From a virus, in the IMG/VR virus record IMGVR_UViG_3300045996_002337, positions 239,971 to 303,970 of that record: a DNA stretch of 64,000 nucleotides. The stretch is one strand, 5' to 3'. Positions 8,553 through 56,646 of the stretch are shown one piece after another. The first letter of the stretch is position 1; each line of letters starts with the position of its first letter. The notes under the pieces are model-generated. The model had not been told where the DNA came from, made no database searches, and worked only from the letters and a program-made list of their open reading frames with translations. The translations under genes and the position numbers were made by a program.

Positions 8553-8640
8553 TTGAACGACGGGATTCGAACCCGCACATTGCGCCGGTGATTAGCCGGT
8601 GCTAAGTATACCAATTCCTCACGTTATGCAAACACGTTCA
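8553..8640 (-). tRNA. tRNA-like (T-arm gcgggTTCGAATcccgt; acceptor and anticodon ambiguous)
   Basis: T-arm and D-like gaattggtatac present. A possible 5' acceptor ttgaacg pairs with the 3' cgttcaa only if the gene is 89 nt. Confidence 0.3.
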
Positions 8641-8695
8641 ACAAAATCAACCATGCGCGGCTACCAATTACGCCACGAGTGCATTAAAACAAGAG

Positions 8696-8829
8696 CAACA
8701 AAGGGCGATAACGAAAAGCCTTTCGGCGAGCCGGCTGCCTTACCACTTGGCGACTATCAATTGCTCGATAGGTAGGATTCGAACCTACGTTTAGCTGGAT
8801 AGATAATCATCATCAACGGTTGCTAATTC
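8696..8829. repeat. R2: second copy of the diverged 134-bp direct repeat (T-arm ggattcgaacctac)
   Basis: Aligns with 5469-5602 at about 70% identity. Too short between its T-arm (8771-8790) and the next tRNA (8832) to hold a full tRNA. Confidence 0.6.
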
Positions 8830-8831
8830 TG

Positions 8832-8905
8832 TGGTGCCCCGTGGGTGAATCGAACACCCGACACCGGGTTACAAAGCCAGTGTTATACCACTTAACTAAC
8901 GGGGC
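8832..8905 (-). tRNA. tRNA, anticodon loop tttgtaa (TGT, Thr-like)
   Basis: Acceptor gccccgt/acggggc, D-arm tagttaagtggtataac, T-arm gggtgTTCGATTcaccc, encoded CCA. Terminal C-C mismatch in anticodon stem. Confidence 0.6.
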
Positions 8906-8931
8906 AAAATTTGATATGCAAAAGTGTAACC

Positions 8932-9008
8932 TGGAGTGCGAGGCCGGAATTGAACCGATGCGTCTCTTGTTTTGCAGACAAGCGGAAGGACCACTCTCCC
9001 ACTCGCAC
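8932..9008 (-). tRNA. tRNA-Cys(GCA)
   Basis: Acceptor gtgcgag/ctcgcac, anticodon arm cttgt-ctGCAaa-acaag, T-loop TTCAATT, encoded CCA. Confidence 0.7.
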
Positions 9009-9153
9009 ATAAAAATTGATGATCGTGAAGAGCTTTCCGAGGTGCGTCCCATGTCTATTAGGTCTAAGCATTCCCCTCGGCAATTCGTGGATTCCCCTTG
9101 CAACTTTTCGAGGGTTGCAAGCTCTTCTTGGCGCCGTCACTTACGATCAAACT

Positions 9154-9246
9154 TGGCGGAGACGGTGAGACTCGAACTCACACACCCATTTCTGAGCCTT
9201 CTGCTTTCAAGGCAGCTGCCGCTATGCCGATTCGGCTAACGTCTCC
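9154..9246 (-). tRNA. tRNA-Ser(TGA)
   Basis: Acceptor ggagacg/cgtctcc, anticodon loop ctTGAaa, long variable region, T-arm gtgagTTCGAGTctcac, encoded CCA. Confidence 0.7.
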
Positions 9247-9251
9247 ATATT

Positions 9252-9327
9252 TGGTGGAGGCGACAGGGATCGAACCTGCGACCTGATGCTTGCAAAGCAC
9301 CTGCTCTCCCAGCTGAGCTACACCCCC
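9252..9327 (-). tRNA. tRNA-Ala(TGC), second copy
   Basis: G3:U70, D-arm tagctcagctgggagagc, anticodon arm ggtgc-ttTGCaa-gcatc, T-arm gcaggTTCGATCcctgt, encoded CCA. Confidence 0.8.
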
Positions 9328-9344
9328 GTTATTCATTGAACTCA

Positions 9345-9436
9345 TTTGGATAGGACTCGAACCTACACGAGGACCTCGCGGTTTGCTCTGCTCCTACTAC
9401 GGAGCCGCGTCTACCAATTCCGCCAGCTTCAGAGTT
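9345..9436 (-). tRNA. tRNA-Leu-like, degenerate (Leu-type D-arm tggcggaattggtagacgcg; 3' acceptor does not pair)
   Basis: D-arm identical to bacterial tRNA-Leu. Anticodon region ctccgTAGtagg. T-arm gtaggTTCGAGTcctat. The 5' ctgaagc has no complementary 3' strand. Confidence 0.35.
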
Positions 9437-9584
9437 CGCCGGGGTAATTAAGCCCGACAGCTGCTAGAAGGAGCGACCCTCTTCGCGACATTTGTTTTGC
9501 TCTGAACTCCGGGTTTTCTCCGGCAAAGGTTCCAGCTTCGGCAGTAAAGATACTCTTTCCAACGTCAGGCCAGACAGCATTCAA

Positions 9585-9680
9585 GCTGAGGGGAATCGAA
9601 CCCCCAATCGGATTTTTCTCACATAACGTGTCAGTTAGGTCCTAGTCCTGGACGACTGCTATTTCCCCTTCACGCTGATG
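9585..9680 (-). tRNA. tRNA-like fragment (T-arm gggggTTCGATTcccc only)
   Basis: Strong T-arm. No pairing acceptor found. Confidence 0.25.
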
Positions 9681-9811
9681 TCTGCTAGTTCAGAGCAAAA
9701 CAAACATGTTGAACAGTTTCATCCGTAGGATAACTGAAAACCTACCACCGCGGGTTGCATCCCGTTTCTCTTCGTGTATGGTGACACTAGCTGATGCTAA
9801 TCAGCACGTAT

Positions 9812-9901
9812 TGGTGGATGCTGTCCGAATCGAACGGACCTTAATGCTCAAAGCATTCATAAGCAAGTAACTTATGCCCACTCGTACCAACTACCACATC
9901 C
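9812..9901 (-). tRNA. tRNA, type II (long variable hairpin), anticodon unresolved (loop ttacttg)
   Basis: Acceptor ggatgtg/agcatcc, T-arm gtccgTTCGATTcggac, encoded CCA. Two internal hairpins (cataag/cttatg and aatgc/gcatt). Confidence 0.55.
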
Positions 9902-9906
9902 AATAC

Positions 9907-9982
9907 TGGTGGACCTAGAGGGAATCGAACCCTACCCACAGATCACTTGCAAGGCGATCCGGCAACCCCAATGCTTAAGCCC
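9907..9982 (-). tRNA. tRNA, Ala-like (G3:U70; anticodon loop ctTGCaa)
   Basis: Acceptor gggctta/taggtcc with G3:U70, anticodon stem atcgc/gtgat, T-arm tagggTTCGATTccctc, encoded CCA. Confidence 0.5.
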
Positions 9983-10102
9983 ATGTTGAATCAGGAATTC
10001 TTGTCAGCGTCCCGACTGAATAGGCAAGAAATCGAATCTTGCAATACCGATCCTTGTAGATCGTCGCTGTCCCATTCGCGTTCTATTCAGAACTCCTAAA
10101 CT

Positions 10103-10186
10103 TGGTGGTGTCGGCTGGATTCGAACCAGCGCGTCCTAGGAATCGGGTTTACAATCCGACGGTTTCAGCCACTCACCCACGACACC
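10103..10186 (-). tRNA. tRNA, type II, anticodon loop ttGTAaa (Tyr-like)
   Basis: Acceptor ggtgtcg/cgacacc, long variable arm ttcctaggacgcg, T-arm gctggTTCGAATccagc, encoded CCA. Confidence 0.6.
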
Positions 10187-10207
10187 AATATTCTTTCTAC
10201 CATTTCT

Positions 10208-10310
10208 CTATGCACAGGGATAGGACTTGAACCTATCATAACCCGTTCCGGGAATCGAACCCCTTCCGCGAGGATGCGTCCAAGCGTGTACCCCAGTACT
10301 GACTCTATGC
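10208..10310 (-). tRNA. tRNA-like element with two T-arm motifs, flanked by 12-bp direct repeats (ctctatgcacag)
   Basis: gggaatcgaacccc and ggacttgaacctatc. Direct repeat at 10208-10219 and 10298-10309. Confidence 0.25.
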
Positions 10311-10319
10311 ACAGAAAAA

Positions 10320-10394
10320 TGGTACCTCCTGACGGTATCGAACCGCCGACCCGCTCCGTGTAAAGGAGCCGCTCTACCACTGAGCTAAGGAGGC
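10320..10394 (-). tRNA. tRNA-Val(TAC)
   Basis: D-arm tagctcagtggtagagc, anticodon arm gctcc-ttTACac-ggagc, T-loop TTCGATA, encoded CCA. Confidence 0.8.
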
Positions 10395-18241: not shown

Positions 18242-18270
18242 ATTATAACCATTCTTACGAACGTTGTACA
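18242..18270 (-). promoter_or_regulatory. promoter of the TGTACA-N17-TATAAT family
   Basis: Plus attataaccattcttacgaacgttgtaca. Confidence 0.45.
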
Positions 18271-18632
18271 TCTAGGCGTTCAGAAATTCTTGCACGATTC
18301 AGTTGCTGAGCAGCTTCATCTGGTTCCCAGTCGCACCACCATGATGTGGGCATTTGAGGCAGATCTGGAATCGACATGAATGAAACCCGTCTCCCGCGTC
18401 TGAGACACTCTGAAACGATTTCGTTGTACCGCTTCTGGAGATATCCGAGCCGGGTGTAGAAGAACTTTACATGCCCACCGCCAAGCACATAGGCTGCTGG
18501 AAACTTGGAAGGATCATCACCCCTCGCGTACGAGTTGTAAGCGAGTGTAAAGACACGAGGAAGCTCCCGGTATTCGGCACCCAGATGCTTATCGGTCAAT
18601 TCACTTGGTGGAATGCAGTTGATTCGCGTCAT
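18255..18632 (-). CDS. denV: pyrimidine-dimer DNA glycosylase (T4 endonuclease V family)
   Basis: [28 protein letters not shown]...[30 protein letters not shown] closely parallels T4 DenV ([28 protein letters not shown]...GAGHVTFFYDKLEFLRKR...ECLKRG). Start placed at the internal Met. Confidence 0.8.
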   Translation of the reverse strand: [125 protein letters not shown]

Positions 18633-18640
18633 CGCAATTA

Positions 18641-18717
18641 TGGCCGCCTCGCTGGGGATCGAACCCAGGACCAATCGCTTTTAGAGGGCGCTGCTCTACC
18701 GCTGAGCTACAAGGCGA
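18641..18717 (-). tRNA. tRNA with anticodon-region cctctaaaa (CUA-type, possible amber suppressor); atypical 8-nt T-loop
   Basis: Acceptor cgccttg/cgaggcg, D-arm tagctcagcggtagagc, encoded CCA. Weak anticodon stem. Confidence 0.5.
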
Positions 18718-18723
18718 AAATTT

Positions 18724-18800
18724 GGTGCGTCGTAAGGGATTCGAACCCTTGATCAAGTGTTTTAGAGGCACTAGCTTTAGACCGCTAAGCTAACGACGCG
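18724..18800 (-). tRNA. tRNA with anticodon CTA (amber-reading, suppressor-type)
   Basis: Acceptor gcgtcgt/acgacgc, anticodon region agtgc-cTCTAaa-acact (U33, CUA at 34-36, closing C-A mismatch), T-arm aagggTTCGAATccctt, encoded CCA. Confidence 0.6.
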
Positions 18801-18816
18801 TTGAAGCTATTATACA

Positions 18817-19254
18817 TCAGATCATTAGCGCCGGCTTAAACTTTTTAGCGTCGTTACATACTACATCAAGGTAATCTGTGATGAAGTTACCAGGAATTCT
18901 TGGGTTTTTAATCGCACCCAGCTGGGTGCTTGTTGCCAACGCTTCACCGTCCTCGGCATAGAGGGTGGCCGAGTTCAAAACCAGTTTGTCATCGCGGCAA
19001 ATCGCGGTCACCGAATCGATGAAGTAGGAGCCTTTCTTCTTCGCGCCTTCTACCACTCGCTCTTGGAAGAGCTTCAGACGGAGAGTAGAAGAAACTTCAT
19101 ACCCGCCGTTGTGTTGGCGGATAAAAAGTGACTTCATGTCTACTTCTATTTCAAATGCTGGTGATGCCCCAATTCGAACGAACTCAGTAACGTCTTGGAT
19201 GGGAGTCGTAATGATCCCCAATGCAAGTAGCACATGTGTGAGGAAAGAACCCAT
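18817..19254 (-). CDS. hypothetical protein (N-terminal hydrophobic segment)
   Basis: 145 aa ORF. AGGAG RBS upstream. Confidence 0.5.
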   Translation of the reverse strand: MGSFLTHVLLALGIITTPIQDVTEFVRIGASPAFEIEVDMKSLFIRQHNGGYEVSSTLRLKLFQERVVEGAKKKGSYFIDSVTAICRDDKLVLNSATLYAEDGEALATSTQLGAIKNPRIPGNFITDYLDVVCNDAKKFKPALMI

Positions 19255-19299: not shown

Positions 19300-19695
19300 C
19301 ACATATGACTGCGGAGCCCGAAGGCTCCGCAGGATGGTTGGTTTACAAGGTGATCAACCCCGCCGTCGAGAGGTTATTAAGCTCTCGACTGCCCTTTCAG
19401 GCAGCCATACGGTAGTTTGCTTCGTTTGCACTTAGCTGTTTTACGCTGATTAGGTCAGTCGTCTCTCCTGCCGCGTATGATCGTCTCCGAAACCCTGTCG
19501 AAACCAGGTCATCCCCATTACAAATTTCTCTGAACTTCCGGGCGCCCAGTTGTTCTTGTTTCCCCAAGCTTTGGTACTGAAAACAGTGTTGGGATGCAGT
19601 AAGAGAAATTTGTGGTGGAGATGGCGGGAATCGAACCCGCGTCCAGAATCCTTCAAGTCACTCCGAATTACGGCAATCAACTGCATTGCTGCAGT
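19300..19695 (-). ncRNA. ssrA: tmRNA (SsrA), circularly permuted two-piece form. Acceptor piece about 19613-19695, intervening about 19517-19612, coding piece about 19300-19516.
   Basis: 3' tRNA-like domain ggacgcgggTTCGATTcccgccatctccACCA matches the E. coli tmRNA 3' end except for two nucleotides. Downstream 5' acceptor ggggatgacctggtttcgacagggtttcgg resembles tmRNA 5' ends and pairs with catctcc giving G3:U70. Tag frame GCA AAC GAA GCA AAC TAC CGT ATG GCT GCC TGA gives ANEANYRMAA (19397-19429). Terminal UUCG hairpin at 19311-19330. Confidence 0.75.
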
Positions 19696-19746
19696 ATGTT
19701 CCTATTATACACTACAATCACTTACCAAAGCTCAAATAAATGTGCT

Positions 19747-20298
19747 TTATTTTACACCGCGGAAGAGAGTCTCTAGAGGATACGTAGCCTCGATTCGCTT
19801 TTTCACCGCTGCGTTCTCGGATTTTGGGATGGTGCCCGCAACGAGGTCTGCCCATTGCTTCCGAGCTTCCTTGCGTTCTTTCTTGAACTCTGCGGCCAGC
19901 TCCGACGGTGTCGCACCTGCTTCCAGCTTTTTCAAGAGCCCCTTCGCTGCCTGAGCAAGTTCTGAGTCCTTGGAGTTGCCGAAGCTGCCTAGGTGGTCAG
20001 CGCTTTTCGCTTCCCATCCAGCCGCGTACTTCTCAAGCTTTTTTTGCCACGCCGTAGATTCGTCTAATGAGAGTAGTTCTTGTAGTAGCATGTATTCTCC
20101 AAATGTTGTTTGTTCGCTGAGCCCTGCTCTGCGCTTCACAATGCCGTTGACGTAGGCCCAAAACCGTGGGCCTTTCTTTTTGAATTTTTTCTTAGCCTGC
20201 TGTTCAGCTTCTTTCCACCAGCCCTCAATGTGCTCAGCGGATTTTCCTGTCTTTTCAGCGTAGCTCTTAACAACTGCGTTTGGCATGTCATCCTCCAA
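19747..20298 (-). CDS. hypothetical Lys/Ala-rich protein
   Basis: 183 aa ORF. Confidence 0.55.
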   Translation of the reverse strand: MEDDMPNAVVKSYAEKTGKSAEHIEGWWKEAEQQAKKKFKKKGPRFWAYVNGIVKRRAGLSEQTTFGEYMLLQELLSLDESTAWQKKLEKYAAGWEAKSADHLGSFGNSKDSELAQAAKGLLKKLEAGATPSELAAEFKKERKEARKQWADLVAGTIPKSENAAVKKRIEATYPLETLFRGVK

Positions 20299-20827: not shown

Positions 20828-21166
20828 TCAGTCTACGTGAGGATTTTTGAAGACCACCTTCACGCCAAGTCTGTCAGCATGGGCAATTTCGCCAGCCACT
20901 CCAACCGAGGTATCGTGGCCATCAAACTGCAGCACCCACACCTCCTGACAGCAGCCAATAACAGCTCGACAGTAATCACACCATTGTTCCCAGGTGGGCT
21001 CCAGCGGCATGTACGGAAGAAGTTGGTACTGCTGCACCATTGGTGCAATGAGCGCGCAGTCAGGATTCTCCATCTGCAACTTGGCAAGATAGCTCAAGAA
21101 TTCCCCCTTGAGCTTCTCATTTTCAACTGTTCCTTTTGAGGGAATGGAAATGAAGACCGTTTTCAA
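20828..21166 (-). CDS. hypothetical protein
   Basis: 112 aa ORF. Confidence 0.5.
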   Translation of the reverse strand: MKTVFISIPSKGTVENEKLKGEFLSYLAKLQMENPDCALIAPMVQQYQLLPYMPLEPTWEQWCDYCRAVIGCCQEVWVLQFDGHDTSVGVAGEIAHADRLGVKVVFKNPHVD

Positions 21167-22563
21167 AACTCGGTCCTTGCGCGAACCTCAGCGAGAGTCG
21201 TTTCATTCATAATTTTACCATTCTGGTAAACGGTGACCATCTCGTCCTCGAATTCCTCGTTGAGGGTACCTTGATCCGTGCGGAGGGTCATGAGCTCACC
21301 GGTCAGCTTGCTGCGGAACAGGGAGAGGGTGCCTTCTTTCGACTTCTTGCCAGGATCGGTGATTGGATCCTTGGCGATGCCAACCCATTCACCATTTACT
21401 CGTACGGCAGATGCCTTCATGGCGAACTTGTAGGTATCGCGGTTGACCTTCTGCAACAGAGCACCACCAGAACCGAAGACAATGTTGTCAGCGGCGAAAC
21501 CCATTGCTTGGAGATTGCCAAGCAGAGTTTTGATCGAGAGGTGATCGACACCATCGCCCTGCAGCAGACCGACGTGCTTGATCTTCTTGAAGCCCTTGGC
21601 GTTCAGCTCATATCCGAAGGTAGCAGCTTGAAGCTTCAGGAGGCGTGGAACAACTTCCATCATGTCGCCAGAATCGGGGCGGAAGACGACCTTTGCACCA
21701 CTTGCGATGATCTCGTCCTTCAGCGTGGTGCAAAGTTGTTCGGCGGCACGGTACACATCGTAGCCATCGATCACGATCGAAACGATACCACCCGGCTTGC
21801 CGAGGTTCTTGATGACGTGACGAAGATACTCGAGTTCTTGCTCGGGCTCCCGGCCAAACGAGCATTCGACGCTGTGCTCGGTTGCAGGAACCGAAAAGGC
21901 GGCCATCGATTCCTTGTAGTAGAAGTTGGCGGCGCGAACACCTTCAATCGTGTCCGAACCCATGAAGTTCACCAAGTGGGCAGCGCCACCGATTTCAGCC
22001 TGTTCAGCGGAGGTGACACCACGCCCACCGAAGTCATGCAGCGCGAAGGGCAGACCACCAAGATCTGCACCAGTTGCATTGTAGAAGTTGCGAATTTCGC
22101 GCTTGATTGCGTAGTCAAGTGAGGCGATGGTGGTGGCGTACCAGACCGCGCGAAGAATGGCGGTCTCGATGTACGAGCAGAGCCAGAACAGGTCTTCATC
22201 ATCGCACTGCACGGTCACAATGGCGTTGCCAGAGCGAACGGGAGTTCCTTCGCGCACGGCCCGGATGGTCAGGGGCAGAAAACCGCCATACACTTTCACG
22301 ATCTTTTCCCAAGCCGAACGCTTGAATGGTTCGCCATGGCCAGCAGCAAAGGCTTCAGCCTCGTCGATGTGCGCGGTGGTGATTCGAATCGTCAGGAACT
22401 TCTTCAGCCACATTTGTAGGCCGAAGGGAATCATGATGTCACGACCATTGGTGCGGGCCTCGATATACGAGAACATGCCGGTGACGTTCTTCGGGTAGGC
22501 GAAGGCGTGCGACAGCTTGTACGAATCAACAGCGAGAATGGGATTGAAAGTGAGAGTGGTCAA
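21163..22563 (-). CDS. nadV: nicotinamide phosphoribosyltransferase (NAMPT/NadV)
   Basis: ILAVDSYKLSH N-terminus and HDFGGRGVTSAEQAEIGGAAHLVNFMGSDTIEG closely match the NAMPT active-site region. Confidence 0.8.
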   Translation of the reverse strand: MTTLTFNPILAVDSYKLSHAFAYPKNVTGMFSYIEARTNGRDIMIPFGLQMWLKKFLTIRITTAHIDEAEAFAAGHGEPFKRSAWEKIVKVYGGFLPLTIRAVREGTPVRSGNAIVTVQCDDEDLFWLCSYIETAILRAVWYATTIASLDYAIKREIRNFYNATGADLGGLPFALHDFGGRGVTSAEQAEIGGAAHLVNFMGSDTIEGVRAANFYYKESMAAFSVPATEHSVECSFGREPEQELEYLRHVIKNLGKPGGIVSIVIDGYDVYRAAEQLCTTLKDEIIASGAKVVFRPDSGDMMEVVPRLLKLQAATFGYELNAKGFKKIKHVGLLQGDGVDHLSIKTLLGNLQAMGFAADNIVFGSGGALLQKVNRDTYKFAMKASAVRVNGEWVGIAKDPITDPGKKSKEGTLSLFRSKLTGELMTLRTDQGTLNEEFEDEMVTVYQNGKIMNETTLAEVRARTEF

Positions 22564-22648: not shown

Positions 22649-23911
22649 TTATAGCATACCCTTATGAAGGCGTACATCCTTTGCTGAGGGACCATGAGAT
22701 GTCAAGCAAACACGAATGCCCATTCGTGCCTCAATGATCGAAGGAAGTTCTGCCGTTAGGATTTCGTGAAGAACATCCTGCATAACCACACGCATCTTCT
22801 CGCCCATTTGGTCAAGACATGTGATCACAATGAGCGGCTGGGCAATCGTGGTGCTGGAGACCTGAGCGTAACTTTTCGCACGATGCATGTCCAACGCGAT
22901 GAAGCGCTGTAGGTTGTCAATATCCAGCGGTGCGTAACGAAGGGTGCCTTGCCATTCGTTGTGAACGTTTGTCTGATCGTTCAGGGGACGATCAGTGATC
23001 ATCTTTCCTTCATGCAATAGAGCCCCATTACCATGACGGGTGGTGTACGCCCGTGTCACGTAGATAGGTTTGACGTTGGTGTAACCACATTCGTTGGCGG
23101 CAGCGATGGAAGACGCTAGACCAGTAACAGAGCGGGTGACGTGCGGAAACTCACCAAAGAACTCGTCAAGCATCAGGCCTTGAGCACCCTCGACGATCAT
23201 GCACTGACGAAAATCGTTGAAGACCTTCGGGTTTTCAAATCGTAGGAAGACGGCCATCCGACGAAGCTCGCCGGCGAGCTTCGTCGTGCTCAGATCAAAC
23301 ATGGAGAAGTAGAGCTGCGCCTTCGCTTGCACATCTGCGCTGGCGTTCGTGAAGCTGGCCATAGAGAGCCCGTACTCGTGAAGCCGCTTCGGCACCCATT
23401 CCTTGCGAATGCGTTGGAGAATGTGCGCAACTTCAAAGCCACTTGACCGTAGCATGTCGAGGGTGAGGAAGTGTCCTGCCTTGTGACGTGTCACGGTCTC
23501 GTTGATACCAAGCCCACATGAACCATGACGGTTGTCGCGTGCGAGCTCGGCAAGAGAATTGATCGCCATGTCGTAGATGGTTGTTACGCGGCAATCACGG
23601 TGGGCGTAGATGTCAGGACGGTGACCGAGCTTCTGAAGAGCGAGCAGCTCCTTCTTCAAGACTGGTGCGTTGAGAATGAAGTTCGACCCGAGGTAGGTGT
23701 TGGCTCCAGCAAATGTACCAGAGCCGACGTGACCGAACACATGACGCTTCTCGCCATCGACCACGGTGTGCCCCGCTTGAGCACCGCCATTGCCACGAGC
23801 AACTAGGGGTGGGACGCCTTGTTCTGTGAACGCGCGGGTGAAGTAGTCCGTTGCCAAACCCTTACCCTCGTCTCCAAACCCGGCCCCAATGATGGCGATT
23901 GCAGTTGTCAT
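22649..23911 (-). CDS. adenylosuccinate synthetase homologue (PurA family; possibly PurZ-type)
   Basis: P-loop IGAGFGDEGKGLATD and GGAQAGHTVV correspond to the PurA GDEGKGK and GGxNAGHT motifs. 420 aa. Confidence 0.75.
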   Translation of the reverse strand: MTTAIAIIGAGFGDEGKGLATDYFTRAFTEQGVPPLVARGNGGAQAGHTVVDGEKRHVFGHVGSGTFAGANTYLGSNFILNAPVLKKELLALQKLGHRPDIYAHRDCRVTTIYDMAINSLAELARDNRHGSCGLGINETVTRHKAGHFLTLDMLRSSGFEVAHILQRIRKEWVPKRLHEYGLSMASFTNASADVQAKAQLYFSMFDLSTTKLAGELRRMAVFLRFENPKVFNDFRQCMIVEGAQGLMLDEFFGEFPHVTRSVTGLASSIAAANECGYTNVKPIYVTRAYTTRHGNGALLHEGKMITDRPLNDQTNVHNEWQGTLRYAPLDIDNLQRFIALDMHRAKSYAQVSSTTIAQPLIVITCLDQMGEKMRVVMQDVLHEILTAELPSIIEARMGIRVCLTSHGPSAKDVRLHKGML

Positions 23912-26588: not shown

Positions 26589-27698
26589 TTAGTCCTTAAT
26601 CATGCCGAGCATGGTGTCCAAGATCGCGTGGTGATCTTCGAACCAGTTTTGGCTGTTGGCCCGCGCTTCATGAATAGGCAACCAGAAAGCTTTTGCGGTT
26701 TCTACCACTGCTTTGCCACCCGTTTCATGAAGCGGTGCATTCTGTCCCTTGACCTTTGGTAGTGGTTTTGTGTCATCGAGTCGAATCAGAAAGGCGGTAG
26801 TGATGGTGCGTCCGCGGAGACTTCGATCAGGGTGATCAAAGATTTCCTTTGCACGAATCGAGCCACGCAGAATACCTTCTGGTACCTTGATGCCAGTTTC
26901 TTCAACCAGCTCACGAATCGCCGCGCTTTGAAGACGTTCACTTTGATCCACGAAGCCACCAGGCAGCGCCCACAGGCCTTTGCCTGGCAGAGCACCGCGC
27001 TCAACAACCAGCACGTGACCAGATTGAATCACAACGTTATCAACCGTCACGAAGGTCGGAGCATACGGTGCCGCCTTCCAAGCCGACTTGTACTTCTCGA
27101 TGAAGTCGTATTCATCTTGAAGCTGATCGTACGCCTCAGATTCAAGAAACTTGACAAGGAGGAATTTGTACGTGACAGGCGGTACATCTTTCCACGCCGG
27201 AGGTGACATATCCCAAATGCTGCTGCGCTCGAAGAGGCGTCTGCGAAGAGCAGTAGCGCTGAGGTCGCGGCCTTCTGGCACCTTCGGCAGCAGATCGCTC
27301 TTCCACTGCGGGAACGCGGAGAGGTACCAGGTCGAGTCGTCTCGATCAGAGCCGGTCAGCCGAATTTCAACTTCATCACGTTTAAGCCGGGCTTCATCAA
27401 TGGCACGATAGACCTGCTCTTGAACCGATTGAATCCACTTCGCGTCGTTGTACGGCTGATCAGCCAATGGGCAGACCTTAAAATGACCATCGTAGTTCGC
27501 GCCAACTTTCCAGCGCTGAATCAATAATTCGCGTTCCTCATACGTGAATGGATTCTTGATCGTGCGCGCTTGGTGCGCGGAACCTACGAGAACGACGACG
27601 AGGTCCGATTGAGCCAGTGCGTGCTCAAGAACGTGGACGTGTCCGAGGTGGAGAGGTTGGAAGCGACCGATGTAGACGGTCACGATTTTGTTTGCCAT
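26589..27698 (-). CDS. bifunctional NMN adenylyltransferase / Nudix hydrolase (NadM-Nudix)
   Basis: N-terminal GRFQPLHLGH (cytidylyltransferase HxGH). C-terminal Nudix box GGFVDQSERLQSAAIRELVEETGI. Confidence 0.8.
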   Translation of the reverse strand: MANKIVTVYIGRFQPLHLGHVHVLEHALAQSDLVVVLVGSAHQARTIKNPFTYEERELLIQRWKVGANYDGHFKVCPLADQPYNDAKWIQSVQEQVYRAIDEARLKRDEVEIRLTGSDRDDSTWYLSAFPQWKSDLLPKVPEGRDLSATALRRRLFERSSIWDMSPPAWKDVPPVTYKFLLVKFLESEAYDQLQDEYDFIEKYKSAWKAAPYAPTFVTVDNVVIQSGHVLVVERGALPGKGLWALPGGFVDQSERLQSAAIRELVEETGIKVPEGILRGSIRAKEIFDHPDRSLRGRTITTAFLIRLDDTKPLPKVKGQNAPLHETGGKAVVETAKAFWLPIHEARANSQNWFEDHHAILDTMLGMIKD

Positions 27699-30255: not shown

Positions 30256-31041
30256 TTACAAAGTTTTGAAAAGTTCTTTCAGCTCATGCACCGTCGGCCA
30301 GAACTGTGGGTGATTTTCAACATCAGGGTGCCAAGCAAGGCCTCGTTCGATGAGGTCAAACTGCTTGACAACCGTCGCACCAGGTTTTCCCTCTTCACGA
30401 CCCATCACCCAAATGGTGTCTGCAATTTGAACTGCAGATTCAAGATCGTGCGTGGTGAAGACAGTCGTGTTCAGCTCATCGACCAGATTCACTTCATTGA
30501 TCAGCGCGCAGACCTTATCCTTCGCGACCACGTCAAGACCTGAGAACGGTTCGTCCATCAGCAGGAAGTGCTTTGAGCCAAGCATCTGTTGAATGATCGC
30601 GATACGCTGGCGTTGACCACCAGACAGCTGGAGCGGGTATTTCTTTGCGTGTTGCTCAAGTCCAAAGCGGCTAAGCAGTTCATGAATTCGATCGTTGTCC
30701 TTCGACACCAGCTGCAGATTCCCCTCGATCGTCCGATGTTGAAGCAGCGGGTAGTTCTGCTGAACAACACCAACAACTCCAGCCGGAACAGGGTCCTTCG
30801 AGTCATGAATGCGCACCATACCAGCTGAGGGCCGCTGCATGCCAGCAATGCAGCGAAAGAGCTGGGTCTTACCGCAGCCCGATGGGCCGAGGAGGGCGAT
30901 GCACTGGCCCTGATTCATACCAGGACGAACGATGTTGTCGACCTGCAGATTAATGTCGCGAAGGATTTGTTTATCTCCGTACGACAGATTGAGACCTTCA
31001 ACGGTGAGCAGGCGCTCTTTGCGTTCGTATTGTTGTTTCAC
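30256..31041 (-). CDS. ABC transporter ATP-binding protein
   Basis: Walker A GPSGCGKT, signature LSGGQRQR, Walker B LLMDEP. Confidence 0.85.
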   Translation of the reverse strand: MKQQYERKERLLTVEGLNLSYGDKQILRDINLQVDNIVRPGMNQGQCIALLGPSGCGKTQLFRCIAGMQRPSAGMVRIHDSKDPVPAGVVGVVQQNYPLLQHRTIEGNLQLVSKDNDRIHELLSRFGLEQHAKKYPLQLSGGQRQRIAIIQQMLGSKHFLLMDEPFSGLDVVAKDKVCALINEVNLVDELNTTVFTTHDLESAVQIADTIWVMGREEGKPGATVVKQFDLIERGLAWHPDVENHPQFWPTVHELKELFKTL

Positions 31042-31592: not shown

Positions 31593-32405
31593 TTACTTGC
31601 CAAGAACGACAGGGACCTGGCCAATAACGCAGGTGGATTTCGAGCACGCTTCACTGAACCGCTTGATCTGCTCAAGCTGAATGAACTGCTCGGGCGAGAG
31701 ACCGATCGCATTGCGATATGCGTTGTCAGCATCTGCCTTGGCAACCTGCTCCTTCTTCCGCTGAATTTCAGCAGCTTCTGCTTCAATGAGGGTCTTCTTG
31801 CGTTGCTGTTGCGCGGCCGTTTCATTCATCTGCGCGAGGACGTTCGCGTTAGGCTTTGCACGCCCGAGCGATACGCCGATGATTTTGAGCGGCAGTTTCG
31901 ATTCGATGACGAGCTTCTGCAGAGCCAACGTAACTTCAGAGTCGACGTCATTTGCTGCAGCGACATCTGACATCATCTGGGTCATGGTCTTCTTCTTGAC
32001 AGCTTCACGAACGATGGACATGTACTGTCGCTCGACGTTCGCCGCAAACCAATCTTGTGTACCGAAGTTCTTCACGAGAGAGACCGCATCTGTGAACTGA
32101 TATTGAATAGTGGATTCAAAGTCGAGGAGAATGTTGTCAGCCGATGACAGATCGTCGAACTGCACCTGCACGCCCTGCGGCGTCATGCGAACTGCCGTGA
32201 GGGACGAAGTTCGGAAAAGCAGAATGCGGCCGTCTTTCAGAACTTCGTCACGAACGCCAGAGTGGCCGAAGAAGTAGGGTTTGTCGACGATGACACCATG
32301 CTGACCAGGTTCAACGACCTCGGTGTGCATGAAGAAGATCCACGTAAACACGAAGCCGATGATGGCAAGAGCTGCGACCGACAGAGCCGCGATAACGTAT
32401 TTCAT
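31593..32405 (-). CDS. SPFH/band-7 domain membrane protein
   Basis: N-terminal TM helix. Prohibitin/HflC-like core and coiled-coil tail. Confidence 0.6.
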   Translation of the reverse strand: MKYVIAALSVAALAIIGFVFTWIFFMHTEVVEPGQHGVIVDKPYFFGHSGVRDEVLKDGRILLFRTSSLTAVRMTPQGVQVQFDDLSSADNILLDFESTIQYQFTDAVSLVKNFGTQDWFAANVERQYMSIVREAVKKKTMTQMMSDVAAANDVDSEVTLALQKLVIESKLPLKIIGVSLGRAKPNANVLAQMNETAAQQQRKKTLIEAEAAEIQRKKEQVAKADADNAYRNAIGLSPEQFIQLEQIKRFSEACSKSTCVIGQVPVVLGK

Positions 32406-32748: not shown

Positions 32749-33111
32749 TCACCAACGAATAACAATTGCGTAGTGCTGATAGAGAGGGCCAGGTTGAAAG
32801 CCATCTACGTCATCAACCGCCAACCCGCGTGGAACATACGCGTTACCGAGCTTTTCAAGGGTAGCGCCGTAGCCGAGTGCCTTCAGCTTCTCAATTAACA
32901 CCTTCATGAATGGTGACACTTCGACGCTATCATATGGCCCAGCATCAATGCTGATCTTGTCATAGGGCATTCCAACTACGTCTGAAAGCACGAGTAACGC
33001 AGCACCGGATTTTGCTGCTGCCTTGATAGGTGCGTCCAGTTTTTCAAGAACGTTCTGTACCGCCGCCTCAGAACGTTCAACAAGGCCACGTGCCTCTTTT
33101 GCGGTGATCAC
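32749..33111 (-). CDS. hypothetical protein
   Basis: 120 aa ORF. Confidence 0.5.
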   Translation of the reverse strand: MITAKEARGLVERSEAAVQNVLEKLDAPIKAAAKSGAALLVLSDVVGMPYDKISIDAGPYDSVEVSPFMKVLIEKLKALGYGATLEKLGNAYVPRGLAVDDVDGFQPGPLYQHYAIVIRW

Positions 33112-33896
33112 CGGTCACTCCTTCCAAGTTCGCTGTATGGGCATACAAGAGCTCGAAGGAAGTTCAATGCCATGTCCTGTACGATGCCGTAGAACAGAAT
33201 GGTGAGCTGAATAGCAAACACCGCGCTGAGGTTGAAGTATTTGGCTTGAACAGCCAACAGCGCACCGATTCCACCGTCACTGCGAACATATGATTCCACC
33301 ATCACGATCAGCGTCCAACCGATTGCGGCGTTCTGGCGGAGAAGGTCAAGCATGACGTGAAGACGGCCGCGAACACCCATTTCCCACGTGATCTGCCAGC
33401 CGCTGAGACCCAAGCTACGTGCGTAGTCGATGCTTTCCAGCGGGATCGATTTGATTTCGTCGACCGTCGACCGCATTAGGAATACCGTCATGCCGAAAGT
33501 GAGCATCGCCAGCTTGAGCATTTGACCATCACCACCCACCCAGAGGGTAAAGAGGAAGGTGAGACCAGCAAAACCGAGGAAGCGCAGCGAGGCAATGAAC
33601 GTTCCAGTCGGTTTGAAAATGTCGGCAGTGGTGAGATAGGCGACGCCAAAGGAAATTAGAGCTGACAGGATTAGAGCCTCCCAGATCACCACTACCGATT
33701 TGAAGAGCTCAAGCAGAAGACCGTTGTTGAGGGCCAACGAGTTCCATGCTTGCGCGATTGAAGAAGGCGAGGGAATGCCTGTGCCATTTGGCAACAGAGT
33801 CCAGATGATCGCCATAATGGCAAGCTGTGTGAGCGCCAGAAACTTCACGCTTAGCTTGCGACCTTGAGAAAAGGGGACGAACATGGATTTGATCAT
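33108..33896 (-). CDS. ABC transporter permease
   Basis: Six hydrophobic segments. Conserved cytoplasmic loop DYARSLGLSGWQITWE (EAA-type). Confidence 0.75.
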   Translation of the reverse strand: MIKSMFVPFSQGRKLSVKFLALTQLAIMAIIWTLLPNGTGIPSPSSIAQAWNSLALNNGLLLELFKSVVVIWEALILSALISFGVAYLTTADIFKPTGTFIASLRFLGFAGLTFLFTLWVGGDGQMLKLAMLTFGMTVFLMRSTVDEIKSIPLESIDYARSLGLSGWQITWEMGVRGRLHVMLDLLRQNAAIGWTLIVMVESYVRSDGGIGALLAVQAKYFNLSAVFAIQLTILFYGIVQDMALNFLRALVCPYSELGRSDR

Positions 33897-38560: not shown

Positions 38561-38779
38561 TCACGCCGATGGCGGAATGTGAACTTTGTTGGTGGCGATA
38601 TTCAGGTTGATGCGTCGTTCATGGACACTGATCGCCCACTGTCGAACCTCCTTCAGCTCCGCTTCCCAGATCGCTTCCTCTGGGCTGCTCTTTGCAGGTT
38701 TGTTGTCATGCAAAAGGCAGAAGAGCTTGTTGATGGCCCGCAGTGCGGCATCAGTTTTCTCCCACGTATCGTAGTTCAC
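38561..38779 (-). CDS. hypothetical protein
   Basis: 72 aa ORF, 4-nt overlap with the RNA ligase gene. Confidence 0.4.
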   Translation of the reverse strand: MNYDTWEKTDAALRAINKLFCLLHDNKPAKSSPEEAIWEAELKEVRQWAISVHERRINLNIATNKVHIPPSA

Positions 38780-40137
38780 TTCTCGCCTTCAAGCCACTTG
38801 TTGCTGATCACTTTGAACTGGTGCGAACCATCCATCGCCTTGAACACGAGACCTTCGCGCACAGCAGCGACCATACTTGGACCATCAGCGAACTTGAGCA
38901 GATCGTCCATGTTGTGAATGCCGAGTTCGGCGAGGGTCACGTTGAAGTGCAGCACAGGCACATGCTCGATCATCTCGCAACCGAAGAGGTTCTTCGCGCA
39001 TTCATTCGCGCTCTTGATCCAAGCAAGGCGTTGGTCAGGAGTCATGAACTCGCCATTCTTGATGTCGAAGATGTTGTACACGAAGAAGCGGTTTTCTGTG
39101 AAGCGTTCTTGGTTGCCCTGGATTCCGGGGCCCATCAGTTCGCCTTGAAGTGCAACGTCGCCACCTTGTTCCGCGATCAGCTCGAGGAGGTCAGGGCTGG
39201 CCATCTTGACAAACGCGTTGTCCTCGTTGCCTTCCAGCTTGAGGTCGAGATTGCGCGAGCACACGCCCTTGATCTCGAGGCCTTCATCGCACTCGGCGTT
39301 CTTCACGTAGGCGGTCATCGAGCTGCCGTCCATCTTCATGGTCACCTCGTAGCGGGTGTCGCGGCTGGCTTCAGCCTTGCGGACCTTGTGCCACTTGCTG
39401 GTCGATTCGTGCCACACGATGTCACCACGGGCGCACATGGCGTCGAGAGCTTCGTCGGGAATGTTCTCGACGCTGAACTCGTAGGTGACATCCTCGTAAC
39501 CGAAGATTTGGTTGCCCATGTTCTGCGCACGTTCTTGATCGCTCTTCTTCAGGAACGAGGGGAAGTTGCCCTTGGCCAGACCAACAAGCTGAGCGCTGGG
39601 CACAGGCGGTTCCCATTTCATGATGCCGAGAAGGCCCGTGAAGTTATACTGACGAATGTCTTCAAAGTCGTAAGTATGACGGCCGGCATCTCGCTCACGG
39701 TGAAACCCGTCGATGAATTCCTCGACTTCGGGGAAAAGGCTCAGCGGTAGCGCGAGACCTTGCGAGAGCTGCTTGCGGAGGCGGATCGTCTTCAGGCGAG
39801 CACCATCGATTCCGTTCCACGTGATCTTGTTCTTCGCGAGGAAGGCGTAACGTTCATCATCGAGCGGTAGGAAACTGTCGACCTCGAAGAACACGCATGA
39901 ATCTCCAACCTGAAATTCTCCAGCCTTGACCACGACCTTCCAGCCTTCAACTGAAGCAACCTTGATCAGGTCTGCACCAGGGATGTCGTCGATCGCATCG
40001 ATGCGCCTGACGGTCACGAGCTTCCGGCCGTCAGCAACCGCGTCTTGGACGAGACGTTGACGGCGAACAGCTTGAAAAGCCGTATGGTCGCCAATGATTT
40101 GGGCATCTGCTTCATTGTATTCATTCATCGTCATCAT
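38776..40137 (-). CDS. ATP-dependent RNA ligase (Rnl5/DraRnl-like: N-terminal domain plus nucleotidyltransferase domain)
   Basis: Motif I VTMKMDGSS (KxDG), motif IV EGLVFKAMDG, motif V FKVISNKW. N-terminal RRIDAIDDIPGADLIKVASVEGWKVVVKAGEFQVGDSCVFFEVDSFLP matches the DraRnl-type N-domain. Confidence 0.7.
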   Translation of the reverse strand: MMTMNEYNEADAQIIGDHTAFQAVRRQRLVQDAVADGRKLVTVRRIDAIDDIPGADLIKVASVEGWKVVVKAGEFQVGDSCVFFEVDSFLPLDDERYAFLAKNKITWNGIDGARLKTIRLRKQLSQGLALPLSLFPEVEEFIDGFHRERDAGRHTYDFEDIRQYNFTGLLGIMKWEPPVPSAQLVGLAKGNFPSFLKKSDQERAQNMGNQIFGYEDVTYEFSVENIPDEALDAMCARGDIVWHESTSKWHKVRKAEASRDTRYEVTMKMDGSSMTAYVKNAECDEGLEIKGVCSRNLDLKLEGNEDNAFVKMASPDLLELIAEQGGDVALQGELMGPGIQGNQERFTENRFFVYNIFDIKNGEFMTPDQRLAWIKSANECAKNLFGCEMIEHVPVLHFNVTLAELGIHNMDDLLKFADGPSMVAAVREGLVFKAMDGSHQFKVISNKWLEGEK

Positions 40138-40196: not shown

Positions 40197-40230
40197 TTCG
40201 CGCCGCTATCTAGCAACTAATGCTATAATT
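40197..40230. repeat. 30-bp exact repeat copy B, upstream of the RNA ligase gene
   Basis: Identical to 16655-16690. Confidence 0.7.
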
Positions 40231-40717
40231 GTTGCGCGTCGGGGGTCTTGACTCTGTGCTCTTCTGCTCGCTTCATTGCTGCCAGTCCTTTGACGACGCG
40301 AACCGGGTCGACGAGATGCGGGTGTGCGGCCATGAACTCCTGCTCTTGAGGAGTCATCTCATTCCCGCGGAGGCCATTGCAGTCAGAGCAGCACGGCCGA
40401 AGGTTCTCGACTGCATCCACCCCGCCGAGTGATTTGGGAATGATATGGTCGCGTGTCATCAGAACAGGCACCCCACAACGCCTCGCATAGAGGTTCAGGC
40501 AAGGTTTGCCCATATGGTTCTTGTGACGATCTGCAATCCAACTGGTGGCTTCACAGCCGCAGTTGTAGCACTTGATGGGGTGTCCGCGGAGGGACAAGAA
40601 GAGAGCTGCACCGCTAGCCGCGGATACAGCTTGGCCTCTCACGAGGCGCTCAGCTTTCGGCTTTGAGAGAATATCGAAGCCGTCTTCCAGTGAAACCTCG
40701 TGATAGAAGATCAGCAT
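40223..40717 (-). CDS. HNH endonuclease
   Basis: CYNCGC...HIIPKSLGGVDAVENLRPCCSDCN is an HNH motif with zinc-binding cysteines. Confidence 0.7.
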   Translation of the reverse strand: MLIFYHEVSLEDGFDILSKPKAERLVRGQAVSAASGAALFLSLRGHPIKCYNCGCEATSWIADRHKNHMGKPCLNLYARRCGVPVLMTRDHIIPKSLGGVDAVENLRPCCSDCNGLRGNEMTPQEQEFMAAHPHLVDPVRVVKGLAAMKRAEEHRVKTPDAQQL

Positions 40718-46747: not shown

Positions 46748-47209
46748 GTGGCAAAAAAACGCATCCCAAGCTTGGTGGTTGAACGAGCTGAAGACCAGGG
46801 CAATTACTTCTATTTGAGCGTGCTCGAATATCGGCGCGAGAATTATCTCGTCATCATCGATAACATTACAGAAGATGGCATCGGGGCCTACGTACTTGAT
46901 TACGCGCAGCAAGAAGGTCTTGATCTTCGCCAACTTATGAGCGTCGTGACCGAGTGGTTCTATCGCGGCTCATATCGTTACCCGCTCTCATTTGAGTTTT
47001 CACGTCGTGGCATGGCGCACATGACGAACAGGATTCACAAGAATTTTGAACTTGCGCACGTCACCCGATTGATCGGAAACGACTTTAGGTTTGACCTCAC
47101 AGCCCCACCTAAAGTTCGTCGTCGTCGCGTTTCAATGATCCCGGCTGGAGTTGAGATCAAGCTCAGAAAATCAAGCGAGCGCGTAGAGGTTCTGAAGTTT
47201 CCGAAGTAG
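46748..47209 (+). CDS. hypothetical protein on the minority (plus) strand, GTG start
   Basis: 153 aa ORF with TAAGGA RBS 6 nt upstream of GTG. Convergent 39-nt overlap with the 3' end of the nucleotidyltransferase gene. Confidence 0.4.
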   Translation: MAKKRIPSLVVERAEDQGNYFYLSVLEYRRENYLVIIDNITEDGIGAYVLDYAQQEGLDLRQLMSVVTEWFYRGSYRYPLSFEFSRRGMAHMTNRIHKNFELAHVTRLIGNDFRFDLTAPPKVRRRRVSMIPAGVEIKLRKSSERVEVLKFPK

Positions 47210-48193
47210 CCATTCTTCAGCGGCCGCCTCCAGTTCGGGGGTCCGCTTTTGCAGGGTGGTCTCCTTGAGCTTGCGCTGGACAGTGTCGTCCAGTTCACGT
47301 AGGTGGGCTTCGATCACCGGCATGTCAACAAGGCCCTTCTTCACAGAAAGAAGGTACTCGGCATTGCTGCGCGGGAATGTGATCGCTCCAGTGTCCAATA
47401 GCTCGATGGCCTGCTCATAAACGCGGATGGCGTGGGACATCGACTTGTAATCCACCGCTTTTTCAGCAGCTCCAGTCGTGCGTTCGCCATACCCTGCGAT
47501 AAGCTTCTTCACAGCGGTGTTCAGCGTCTGCAGAGAAGAGGTCTCCAAGTAGCTACGTCCATTCAACTCAAGCGTACGAAGCACCCGGTTGTTGTTCGGC
47601 GTTTCAGAGGTGAGCAGCTCGGCTTCGCGTGCGATCACATCGATCACCTTTTCACCATCGATCAAGTCATCGAGCCGATACTCAGCTTTCTTTTCCTGCA
47701 AGGAAAGCTTAAGCTCTACAGCAGAGATAGCAGCGAGGACCTTGCGAGCTGCATTCAGACGCTCACCGCGTCGAACGTAGTCAAACGTCTGCTTCATCGC
47801 AAACCCGACCATCGAATAGACTTCGGCGTTCGTGAACTTTGCGATCAGTTCCTGAAGAAGCTCTTGCATCTCAGGAGGGGTGCTGGTATTCTTCACCCCG
47901 CCGAAGGCGATTTCAAGTGCGTAAGTTTGCCCTGCCACGAAGTCGCGAACGAACGTTTGAAGTGGGAAGTACTCCGTCTCGACACCATTATCAGGCATCG
48001 ATTTATCGACTGCAACAGGTTCACCGTCAGCGTCAACCCGCGTCTTGAAGATGCGAGGAGCTTTGCCTAGCAGCAAACTGTCGAGTGAGGGGAGGTACAC
48101 GACCTTGTTGTCGGTATCAGAAGTAGGCGTTGAGGTACCGTACAGCTTCGAGCCATATGTCACCTCAAAAAGATTCGTGGTTTGATCTGTCAA
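47171..48193 (-). CDS. predicted nucleotidyltransferase (Pol-beta superfamily)
   Basis: N-terminal YGSKLYGTSTPTSDTDNKVVY fits the hG[GS]x9-13[DE]h[DE] NTase signature. Confidence 0.55.
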   Translation of the reverse strand: MTDQTTNLFEVTYGSKLYGTSTPTSDTDNKVVYLPSLDSLLLGKAPRIFKTRVDADGEPVAVDKSMPDNGVETEYFPLQTFVRDFVAGQTYALEIAFGGVKNTSTPPEMQELLQELIAKFTNAEVYSMVGFAMKQTFDYVRRGERLNAARKVLAAISAVELKLSLQEKKAEYRLDDLIDGEKVIDVIAREAELLTSETPNNNRVLRTLELNGRSYLETSSLQTLNTAVKKLIAGYGERTTGAAEKAVDYKSMSHAIRVYEQAIELLDTGAITFPRSNAEYLLSVKKGLVDMPVIEAHLRELDDTVQRKLKETTLQKRTPELEAAAEEWLLRKLQNLYALA

Positions 48194-56223: not shown

Positions 56224-56646
56224 TCACTTCTTGCGAGGATAGCAAGGACCTTGCGGTAGATGGGTGATGTCGCCATAACGTGGCAACCAATTTGTCACGC
56301 CACACTTCACACACTCGTAGTCATACTCGCCGTTGTGGCCCCCGACTGCACGTGAAATGTCCTTCCACTCGTGCTGCTCAACCGCATCAGTCAAGGTTGG
56401 GATGACGTTAGCTTCGACCCACTTTTGGACGCCCGCAGGCGTTCCGTCACTTCGATTGTCGTGCTGTTCCCGCATCAACTTGCCAAGCATCGAGGCACCA
56501 TCACCTTTGATCGTCACGCCTTCCAAAGTCGGGAAACGCTTCGGGCTGGACAGGTCCAAAAACGGGAGGCACCTCGACCTCACCGTGAGAACCGTCCTGG
56601 ACCAGTTGATGACACTTAACCCCACGCTTTTCGAGCCGCTCAACAC
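56224..56646 (-). CDS. hypothetical protein with C-terminal zinc ribbon (CVKCG...)
   Basis: 140 aa ORF. Its 5' 146 nt overlap the tail of the dCMP deaminase ORF in another frame. Confidence 0.4.
   Translation of the reverse strand: MLSGSKSVGLSVINWSRTVLTVRSRCLPFLDLSSPKRFPTLEGVTIKGDGASMLGKLMREQHDNRSDGTPAGVQKWVEANVIPTLTDAVEQHEWKDISRAVGGHNGEYDYECVKCGVTNWLPRYGDITHLPQGPCYPRKK

Follow-up and report, generated by a model that had tools for sequence, protein, structure and literature searches.

Tandem CUA-anticodon tRNAs that differ at their acceptor ends in a jumbo phage related to XacN1 and using the standard code

The 64-kb stretch of viral DNA analysed here (hereafter, the window) encodes on its minus strand two tandem tRNAs with the anticodon CUA. 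The genes around them use the standard genetic code, and the two tRNAs differ at their acceptor ends. It is proposed that the pair could be working amber suppressors of a standard-code jumbo phage, acting in trans in the infected cell and mainly on messages other than those of the phage; we judge the chances of this proposal to be roughly even. Amber-suppressor tRNAs of phages are usually taken to indicate an alternative genetic code. The clade of jumbo phages of soil and plant pathogens formed by XacN1, RsoM2USA, Xoo-sp13, RAS14 and the present phage keeps suppressors without recoding. The window adds a distant member to this clade and shows the recurrence of a pair whose members differ in their acceptor ends.

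The two genes lie one behind the other (Table 1), separated by 6 nt and 74% identical. A preliminary description of this DNA, made from the sequence, had claimed two tRNAs with a CUA anticodon, and ARAGORN and Rfam agree with it: U33, CUA and A37 follow one another in both. The Rfam search with RF00005 covered the whole 64-kb window, and its gathering score is 29. Read on the minus strand, tRNA A is GCGUCGU-UA-GCUU-AGCGGUCUA-AAGC-U-AGUGC-CUCUAAA-ACACU-UGAUC-AAGGG-UUCGAAU-CCCUU-ACGACGC-A-CCA and tRNA B is CGCCUUG-UA-GCUC-AGCGGUA-GAGC-A-GCGCC-CUCUAAA-AGCGA-UUGGUC-CUGGG-UUCGAUC-CCCAG-CGAGGCG-G-CCA. Arm-by-arm parsing of the predictions of both detectors gives complete cloverleafs, with the 7-bp acceptor stem and the D, anticodon and T arms of RF00005 tRNAs, and with U8, A14, G18G19, the T-loop and CCA in place. 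The loop of both, C-CUCUAAA-A, places C32, U33, C34, U35, A36, A37 and A38, that is, CUA at 34-36 in a 7-nt loop with U33 and a purine at 37, as expected of an amber suppressor; the caveat is the C31·A39 pair that closes this loop. A36A37A38, the motif by which MiaA recognises tRNAs reading UNN codons for i6A37 modification, is also present.

The two copies differ in detail. tRNA A has G1-C72, the discriminator base A73, and an anticodon stem of four Watson-Crick pairs plus C31·A39. tRNA B has C1-G72, G73, a variable loop of 6 nt, and an anticodon stem of three G-C pairs flanked by G27·A43 on one side and C31·A39 on the other. CCA is encoded in both. Since its anticodon stem has no more than three Watson-Crick pairs, tRNA B might work poorly. 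ARAGORN labels the genes as tRNA-Pyl because of the anticodon CUA and nothing else. A tRNA-Pyl has a 3-nt variable loop, a short D-loop that lacks G18G19 and an elongated anticodon stem, and its T-loop is not of the canonical type; since tRNA A and tRNA B have G18G19, a UUCGA T-loop and a variable loop of 5-6 nt, this identity was rejected.

Table 1. Features of the window discussed in the text, with strand and supporting evidence.
Feature	Position	Strand	Evidence or remark
Main tRNA array	1197..10394	-	26 ARAGORN tRNAs and 2 Rfam-only
Rfam-only tRNA	2258-2362	-	55 bits; missed by ARAGORN
Second Rfam-only tRNA	6216-6284		weak, 29.4 bits
denV (pyrimidine-dimer DNA glycosylase)	18255..18632	-	Pfam PF03013 Pyr_excise, E 6.1e-13; directly downstream of tRNA B
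Candidate suppressor tRNA B	18641..18716	-	ARAGORN, anticodon CTA; Rfam RF00005 52.5 bits, E 2e-08
Candidate suppressor tRNA A	18723..18799	-	ARAGORN, anticodon CTA; Rfam RF00005 64.3 bits, E 1.2e-11
145-aa ORF	18817..19254	-	between tmRNA and tRNA A; function not assigned
Permuted (two-piece) tmRNA	19306..19749	-	Rfam tmRNA_permuted 129 bits, betaproteobacterial model beta_tmRNA 110.9 bits; ARAGORN
NAMPT	21163-22563	-	NAD+ salvage
Adenylosuccinate-synthetase homologue	22649-23911	-	Pfam E 1e-34; PHROG annotated PurZ-type
NMNAT/NUDIX, bifunctional	26589-27698	-	NAD+ salvage
ABC-transporter ATPase	30256-31041	-
Band 7/SPFH protein	31593-32405	-
ABC permease-domain protein	33108-33896	-
RNA ligase	38776-40137	-
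HNH endonuclease	40223-40717	-	TAG-terminated, ends TAG CAT TAG (double amber); adjoins RNA ligase
TAG-terminated gene, phrog_11637	46748-47209	+	only credible plus-strand gene
RlaP-like nucleotidyltransferase	47171-48193	-
dCMP/cytidine deaminase family	56501-57058	-	Pfam E 3e-26

The register of the anticodon loop deserves attention, and the preliminary description had named a 9-nt loop with a different anticodon as the finding that would speak against CUA. Energy folding does open the 31-39 pair (C and A) in both tRNAs and yields a 9-nt loop, CCUCUAAAA, but the extension is symmetrical and the anticodon stays CUA. A 7-nt loop in which CUA occupies 34-36 is supported because homologues close an identical CUCUAAA loop with a Watson-Crick 31-39 pair, which is U31-A39 in the Pectobacterium phage CBB and the Sinorhizobium phage Phosso and A31-U39 in the Ralstonia phage RsoM2USA. 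The C31·A39 combination, often accompanied by a mismatch at 27-43, is found in all six tRNAs of the XacN1-like group: the two of the window, the two of XacN1, and those of Xoo-sp13 and RAS14.

The comparison took in twelve CUA tRNAs, which come from several contigs and seven phages; some of these tRNAs had been found with a search pattern that includes the loop, and the GenBank members by BLAST. In this set the stretch from C32 to A39, CUCUAAAA, is invariant, and 14 of the 19 stem pairs show compensatory changes. An invariant loop combined with compensatory changes points to selection as tRNAs, and on this comparison the CUA tRNAs are under purifying selection and are neither chance matches nor pseudogenes.

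The window is the early or auxiliary region of a new, distant jumbo phage of the XacN1/RsoM2USA group. It has no near DNA match among 50,697 GenBank phage records, and no exact match to its proteins turned up in an assembly index. For its DNA ligase the best match is the RsoM2USA enzyme, with an amino-acid identity of 40%, and since RsoM2USA is here the nearest relative, the carriers are deeply diverged. The suppressor tRNAs find their best matches in the Xanthomonas phages XacN1 and Xoo-sp13 and the Stenotrophomonas phages RAS14/CM1; the closest homologue of tRNA B is the CUA tRNA of Xoo-sp13 (84.5%). CUA tRNAs are also present in RsoM2USA, Xoo-sp13, RAS14, CBB and Phosso, and in the tRNA arrays of XacN1, Xoo-sp13 and RAS14 the suppressor occupies a syntenic place. 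To judge from its retention across such deep divergence, the CUA suppressor is an old and selected feature.

A suppressor in a standard-code jumbo phage is already known, and the exact pair has been published for XacN1, the genome of which contains two suppressor tRNA genes with the anticodon CUA (Yoshikawa et al. 2018, PMC5852040). The RsoM2USA paper describes one CUA suppressor. No explanation for the function of such CUA tRNAs was found in the literature searched. What is new here is the order of A73 and G73, which is the same as in XacN1, the occurrence of C31·A39 throughout the XacN1-like group, and a tmRNA nearby in four contexts.

The pair of XacN1 (AP018399) resembles that of the window in several respects. 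Its CUA tRNAs also stand in tandem, ~7 nt apart, with A73 in the 5' copy and G73 in the 3' copy; the anticodon region CCUCUAAAA with C31·A39 is identical; CCA is encoded in both; a permuted tmRNA lies within ~1 kb; and the phage uses the standard code with very few amber stops. In contrast, identity between the two pairs is only ~75-80%, the body is the same in both copies of XacN1 whereas the copies of the window have diverged, and the flanking protein genes are not homologous. The tmRNA lies downstream of the pair in XacN1 and upstream in the window, and the XacN1 pair sits inside a tRNA-rich terminal repeat, whereas 8 kb of protein genes separate the window pair from the main tRNA array. 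RsoM2USA, Xoo-sp13, RAS14/CM1, CBB and Phosso share with the window the CUCUAAA loop, a canonical cloverleaf and a position in or near large tRNA arrays, but each has a single CUA tRNA, and in RsoM2USA, CBB and Phosso the 31-39 pair is Watson-Crick. RAS14 has a GOLLD RNA in its tRNA array (OP752703 ~301163-301588; Rfam 217.8 bits, gathering 150), unannotated in the record, and no tmRNA in the 33-kb stretch examined. A 'tRNA-Stop(tta)' predicted by ARAGORN in RAS14 was rejected, as it has no Rfam support and little similarity to any tRNA.

The acceptor ends bear on the amino acids that the pair might insert. In XacN1 the two suppressors, Sup1 and Sup2, are identical at 58 of 58 body positions (8 to 65) and differ at 13 of 15 positions of the acceptor stem and discriminator. 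An identical body with distinct ends points to homogenisation of the body while two ends were kept. The combination of C1-G72 and G73 is common to tRNA B and the single CUA tRNA of RsoM2USA, and an unrelated IMG/VR contig (L013) carries one A73 and one G73 CUA tRNA, the latter with U1-A72. The synthetases LysRS (U35, A73) and GlnRS (U35, G73) are the classical chargers of amber suppressors; both recognise U35, and CUA tRNAs therefore typically receive lysine or glutamine. In a tRNA with this anticodon, U35 and the acceptor end must be the main carriers of identity.

Isotypes were predicted by nearest neighbour and by per-isotype profile HMMs with masked anticodon, the accuracy of both being ~57%. 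For tRNA A the top score is that of Lys (39.0 versus 33.4), by a classifier that is only 57% accurate in leave-one-out trials, and in 9 of the 12 CUA tRNAs Lys takes one of the first two ranks with classifiers that are ~57% accurate on canonical tRNAs. Among annotated phage tRNAs the matches of tRNA B are mostly tRNA-Lys, but it has G73 and Lys is not its top score. As far as this hint towards lysine goes, the bodies look most like tRNA-Lys, and both tRNAs appear to derive from a tRNA-Lys-like ancestor. The A73 copy would probably be charged with lysine, a prediction of moderate weight. For the copy with G73 and C1-G72, glutamine would be the leading guess, which is uncertain and carries low weight. 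The pair may thus read UAG as two different amino acids.

When the standard code is applied, the window is tiled with genes. A gene model based on codon usage predicts 99-101 of them, with TGA (51-52), TAA (45-46) and TAG (3) as stops. No gap in the gene map of the 64 kb is explained by reading TAG as sense, no candidate genes with an internal TAG occur there, and the coding scores sum to 5713 for the standard code versus 5609 with TAG as sense. On these three grounds wholesale or local recoding of TAG was rejected. The statements of the preliminary description that the ORFs look intact under the standard code and that wholesale recoding is not indicated are thus upheld for the 64 kb, which hold no structural genes. 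The relatives give the same picture. Genes of the recoded (code 15) type were found neither in the window nor in the sampled parts of the relatives, and no credible gene that requires TAG as sense was seen in the sampled RsoM2USA, XacN1, Xoo-sp13 and RAS14 sequences; coding density under the standard code is 89% in 200 kb of RsoM2USA. Among the window proteins scanned (~50 by Pfam, and another handful by PHROGs alone) there was no release factor, including the RF2 that can accompany recoding, no aminoacyl-tRNA synthetase, no SmpB and no peptidyl-tRNA hydrolase.

Only two of the genes that end in TAG in the window are credible, namely the HNH endonuclease gene and the phrog_11637 gene; the third is a doubtful ORF of 44 codons. 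The TAG of the phrog_11637 gene is not conserved, since the RsoM2USA orthologue has TAA as its stop. With the same gene model, TAG ends 23 of 304 genes in 200 kb of RsoM2USA, 2 of 60 in Xoo-sp13 and 0 of 50 in RAS14. In 50 kb of XacN1 the count is 7 of 91, or 1 of 49 for genes of at least 100 aa.

Read-through of late genes, which the preliminary description had considered, along with host interference, more likely than wholesale recoding, was not supported. In a pool of 604 genes, taken from this phage and four relatives, long in-frame extensions that look coding follow TAG in 4 of 35 cases, TAA in 34 of 332 and TGA in 2 of 237, and are thus no commoner after TAG than after TAA; the extensions past TAG are neighbouring genes that chance to be in frame. 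Four pairs of ORFs bridged by TAG in RsoM2USA were tried as programmed read-through fusions and rejected, the arrangement being as common after TAA. A seemingly split DNA-ligase gene in RsoM2USA was also rejected, since it is an annotated antisense shadow ORF.

The rarity of TAG could be taken as an adaptation to the suppressor. The Stenotrophomonas phage Moby, which carries a tmRNA along with its tRNA array and lacks a suppressor, ends 2 of 83 genes in TAG, compared with 12 of 300 for the suppressor carriers pooled (Fisher p = 0.74). As suppressor-free Moby is equally depleted, avoidance of TAG as an adaptation was rejected, and a test of TAG avoidance against an off-frame null was only marginal. 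It follows that the rarity of TAG is a permissive background and not evidence of adaptation. Because TAG is rare as a phage stop, suppression would cost the phage little.

The surroundings of the pair consist of genes on the same strand. The preliminary description had placed the tRNAs directly after denV. They do adjoin it, but the coordinates given were off by one base, and 'after' is true of plus-strand coordinates only; in the direction of transcription the tRNAs precede denV, the ATG of which begins 8 nt from the end of tRNA B. On the other side, a TATAAT (18814-18809) overlaps the TGA stop of the 145-aa ORF and ends 9 nt before the 5' end of tRNA A. No sigma-70 consensus promoter or terminator beyond chance expectation was found around the pair. 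The tight spacing suggests that the pair is probably co-transcribed with the flanking minus-strand genes and then processed. The 145-aa ORF has no Pfam match and no homologue in the loci of the relatives. A conserved protein partner beside the suppressors was rejected, since the flanking ORFs of the window lack homologues in the XacN1, RAS14 and Xoo-sp13 loci; XacN1 and RAS14 have an upstream gene in common, and RAS14 and Xoo-sp13 a downstream gene.

The tmRNA, which encodes the tag peptide ANEANYRMAA*, lies 0.5 kb upstream of the pair. Elsewhere a tmRNA is found downstream of the CUA tRNAs in XacN1 (~1 kb) and Xoo-sp13 (2.2 kb) and upstream of them in contig L013 (3.5 kb). The tmRNAs of XacN1 and Xoo-sp13 are also permuted; the hosts of these two phages are gammaproteobacteria and themselves have a one-piece tmRNA. 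According to Ueda et al. (2002), as cited in PMC3985003, suppressor tRNAs raise the demand on tmRNA. Because suppressors make work for tmRNA, a functional link is plausible, and by this analogy the tmRNA may be a functional partner of the pair. However, phages that lack a suppressor, such as Moby, likewise have tmRNAs within their tRNA clusters, and no tmRNA was seen near the suppressor in the 33 kb of RAS14 or in the first 200 kb of RsoM2USA. Since each is found without the other, their proximity may only reflect the clustering of RNA genes.

Based on these observations, the following mechanism can be imagined for the pair as trans-acting suppressors. After transcription and processing with the flanking genes, tRNA A and tRNA B would be charged by host aminoacyl-tRNA synthetases and would compete with release factor 1 at UAG codons in the infected cell. 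Phage genes, which almost never end in UAG, would suffer little, and read-through would fall on messages of the host and of mobile elements, as well as on any amber nonsense mutations of the phage. Ribosomes that pass a suppressed stop could be rescued by the tmRNA which the phage encodes nearby. Interference with the host, the other function raised by the preliminary description, is possible on such a scheme. It speaks against the mechanism that TAG is depleted just as strongly in the suppressor-free Moby, and also that E. coli strains tolerate amber suppressors well, so that harm to the host may be small. An elaboration, in which the A73/G73 pair is a dual-identity amber decoder (charged, for example, by LysRS and GlnRS) and forms with the tmRNA a module that reprograms UAG termination, extending host proteins that end at UAG while stalled or aberrant products are tagged and cleared and TAG-free phage genes are unaffected, seems to us unlikely.

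Other explanations of the pair have to be weighed against trans-acting suppression. In recoded phages (crAss-like, Lak and others) a CUA tRNA encoded by the phage, and presumably charged by enzymes of the host, changes the reading of UAG during infection (Borges et al., bioRxiv 10.1101/2021.08.26.457843), and this established role, together with the fact that the window covers early and auxiliary genes while the late genes lie outside, lends some credit to stage-specific recoding or programmed read-through, in which phage genes beyond the window (structural or lysis genes) contain in-frame TAG codons and are switched on late by the suppressors. We nevertheless hold it to be quite improbable. 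In recoded phages the late genes contain many in-frame TAG codons, the GC content is often low and RF2 is sometimes encoded, whereas no in-frame TAG was found in the window and its relatives, including 200 kb of RsoM2USA and the sampled XacN1, Xoo-sp13 and RAS14 sequences; extensions are as frequent after TAA as after TAG; the one conserved window gene that ends in TAG ends in TAA in RsoM2USA; and neither RF2 nor a synthetase gene was found in the window. The XacN1 authors, moreover, read in silico through all 18 amber stops (among 592) and obtained no added similarity and identified no targets (PMC5852040). It is possible, though we doubt it, that the suppressor is a nearly free form of insurance, which rescues amber mutations in a very large genome or simply persists. 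This would correspond to an intermediate on the route to recoding drawn by Borges et al., in which depletion of a stop codon is followed by acquisition of a suppressor and then by in-frame stops; a standard-code phage with an acquired suppressor is shown by the same authors (bioRxiv 10.1101/2021.08.26.457843), and the rarity of TAG with or without a suppressor is the permissive condition of that route. The GC content of the present phages, ~42-54%, is however not the low GC of the Borges scenario. A suppressor with an invariant loop has been kept in phages with DNA ligases of only 40% identity, and XacN1 maintains two acceptor ends on an otherwise identical body; such conservation and such maintenance argue for stronger selection than the rescue of rare mutations would give.

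The tRNAs might also not be translational suppressors at all, being read in an altered register with a 9-nt loop, or serving as decoys for anticodon nucleases of the host, or decaying as pseudogenes. The opening of 31-39 on energy folding and the weak anticodon stem of tRNA B fit such a view, and the RNA ligase and RlaP-like protein of the window suggest a conflict with tRNA-cleaving defences. We consider it very improbable, as the normal 5-bp stem around CUCUAAA in CBB, Phosso and RsoM2USA shows a conserved register, U33, the purine at 37, the nucleotides of the tertiary pairs and CCA are intact, and the compensatory changes speak against pseudogenes. We know of no anticodon nuclease that targets a CUA tRNA.

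Should suppression of host messages, or the insertion of two amino acids, prove true, it would be a new viral way to manipulate translation termination, and suppressor scaffolds of a natural, orthogonal-like kind would become available. As low-cost insurance and nothing else, the pair would be a record of the permissive stage through which a genetic code passes before it changes.

Classical amber suppressors of E. coli (supE from tRNA-Gln, su7 from tRNA-Trp, and those derived from lysine tRNA) arose when a single base change turned a sense anticodon into CUA. The loop of su7, CUCUAAA followed by A39, is the same as that of the window tRNAs. The E. coli suppressors are, however, mutations of cellular tRNA genes selected in the laboratory, whereas those of the window are a conserved natural viral pair with C31·A39.

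More tandem pairs were sought in public collections. A loose pattern gave 120 matches, none of them a tandem CUA pair. A strict tandem-pair pattern found nothing in IMG/VR and, in a metagenome collection, one real pair of a different tRNA family, along with a CRISPR array and other repeats. Another family of phage contigs, L010 and L011 from IMG/VR and L147 (Ga0307376_10063491, 1232-1386), carries two dissimilar CUA tRNAs, one canonical with U73 and the other atypical with a short D-arm and G73. Non-identical pairs of amber suppressors thus recur outside the XacN1 group.

In total, ARAGORN predicts 28 tRNAs and a single tmRNA for the window, every one of them encoded on the minus strand. Of the two tRNAs in the main array detected by Rfam only, the stronger has a 34-nt insertion within its anticodon loop and may contain an intron.

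Almost all of the ~100 protein genes are on the minus strand, and the recognisable products are early or auxiliary: denV, a DksA/TraR zinc finger, Hsp20, NAMPT, NMNAT/NUDIX, an adenylosuccinate-synthetase homologue, RNA and DNA ligases, a dCMP deaminase, the HNH endonuclease and parts of an ABC transporter. The PurZ-type match of the adenylosuccinate-synthetase homologue raises the question of whether adenine is replaced by 2-aminoadenine in this phage. The NAD+ salvage pair, NAMPT with the bifunctional NMNAT/NUDIX protein, is also annotated in Moby. The RNA ligase and the RlaP-like nucleotidyltransferase form an RNA-repair set. The deaminase of the dCMP/cytidine family also has weaker MafB19- and APOBEC-like matches. 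The clustered ABC-transporter ATPase, Band 7/SPFH and ABC permease-domain genes are unusual cargo for a phage, and in XacN1 a Band 7 gene is likewise found beside tRNA genes.
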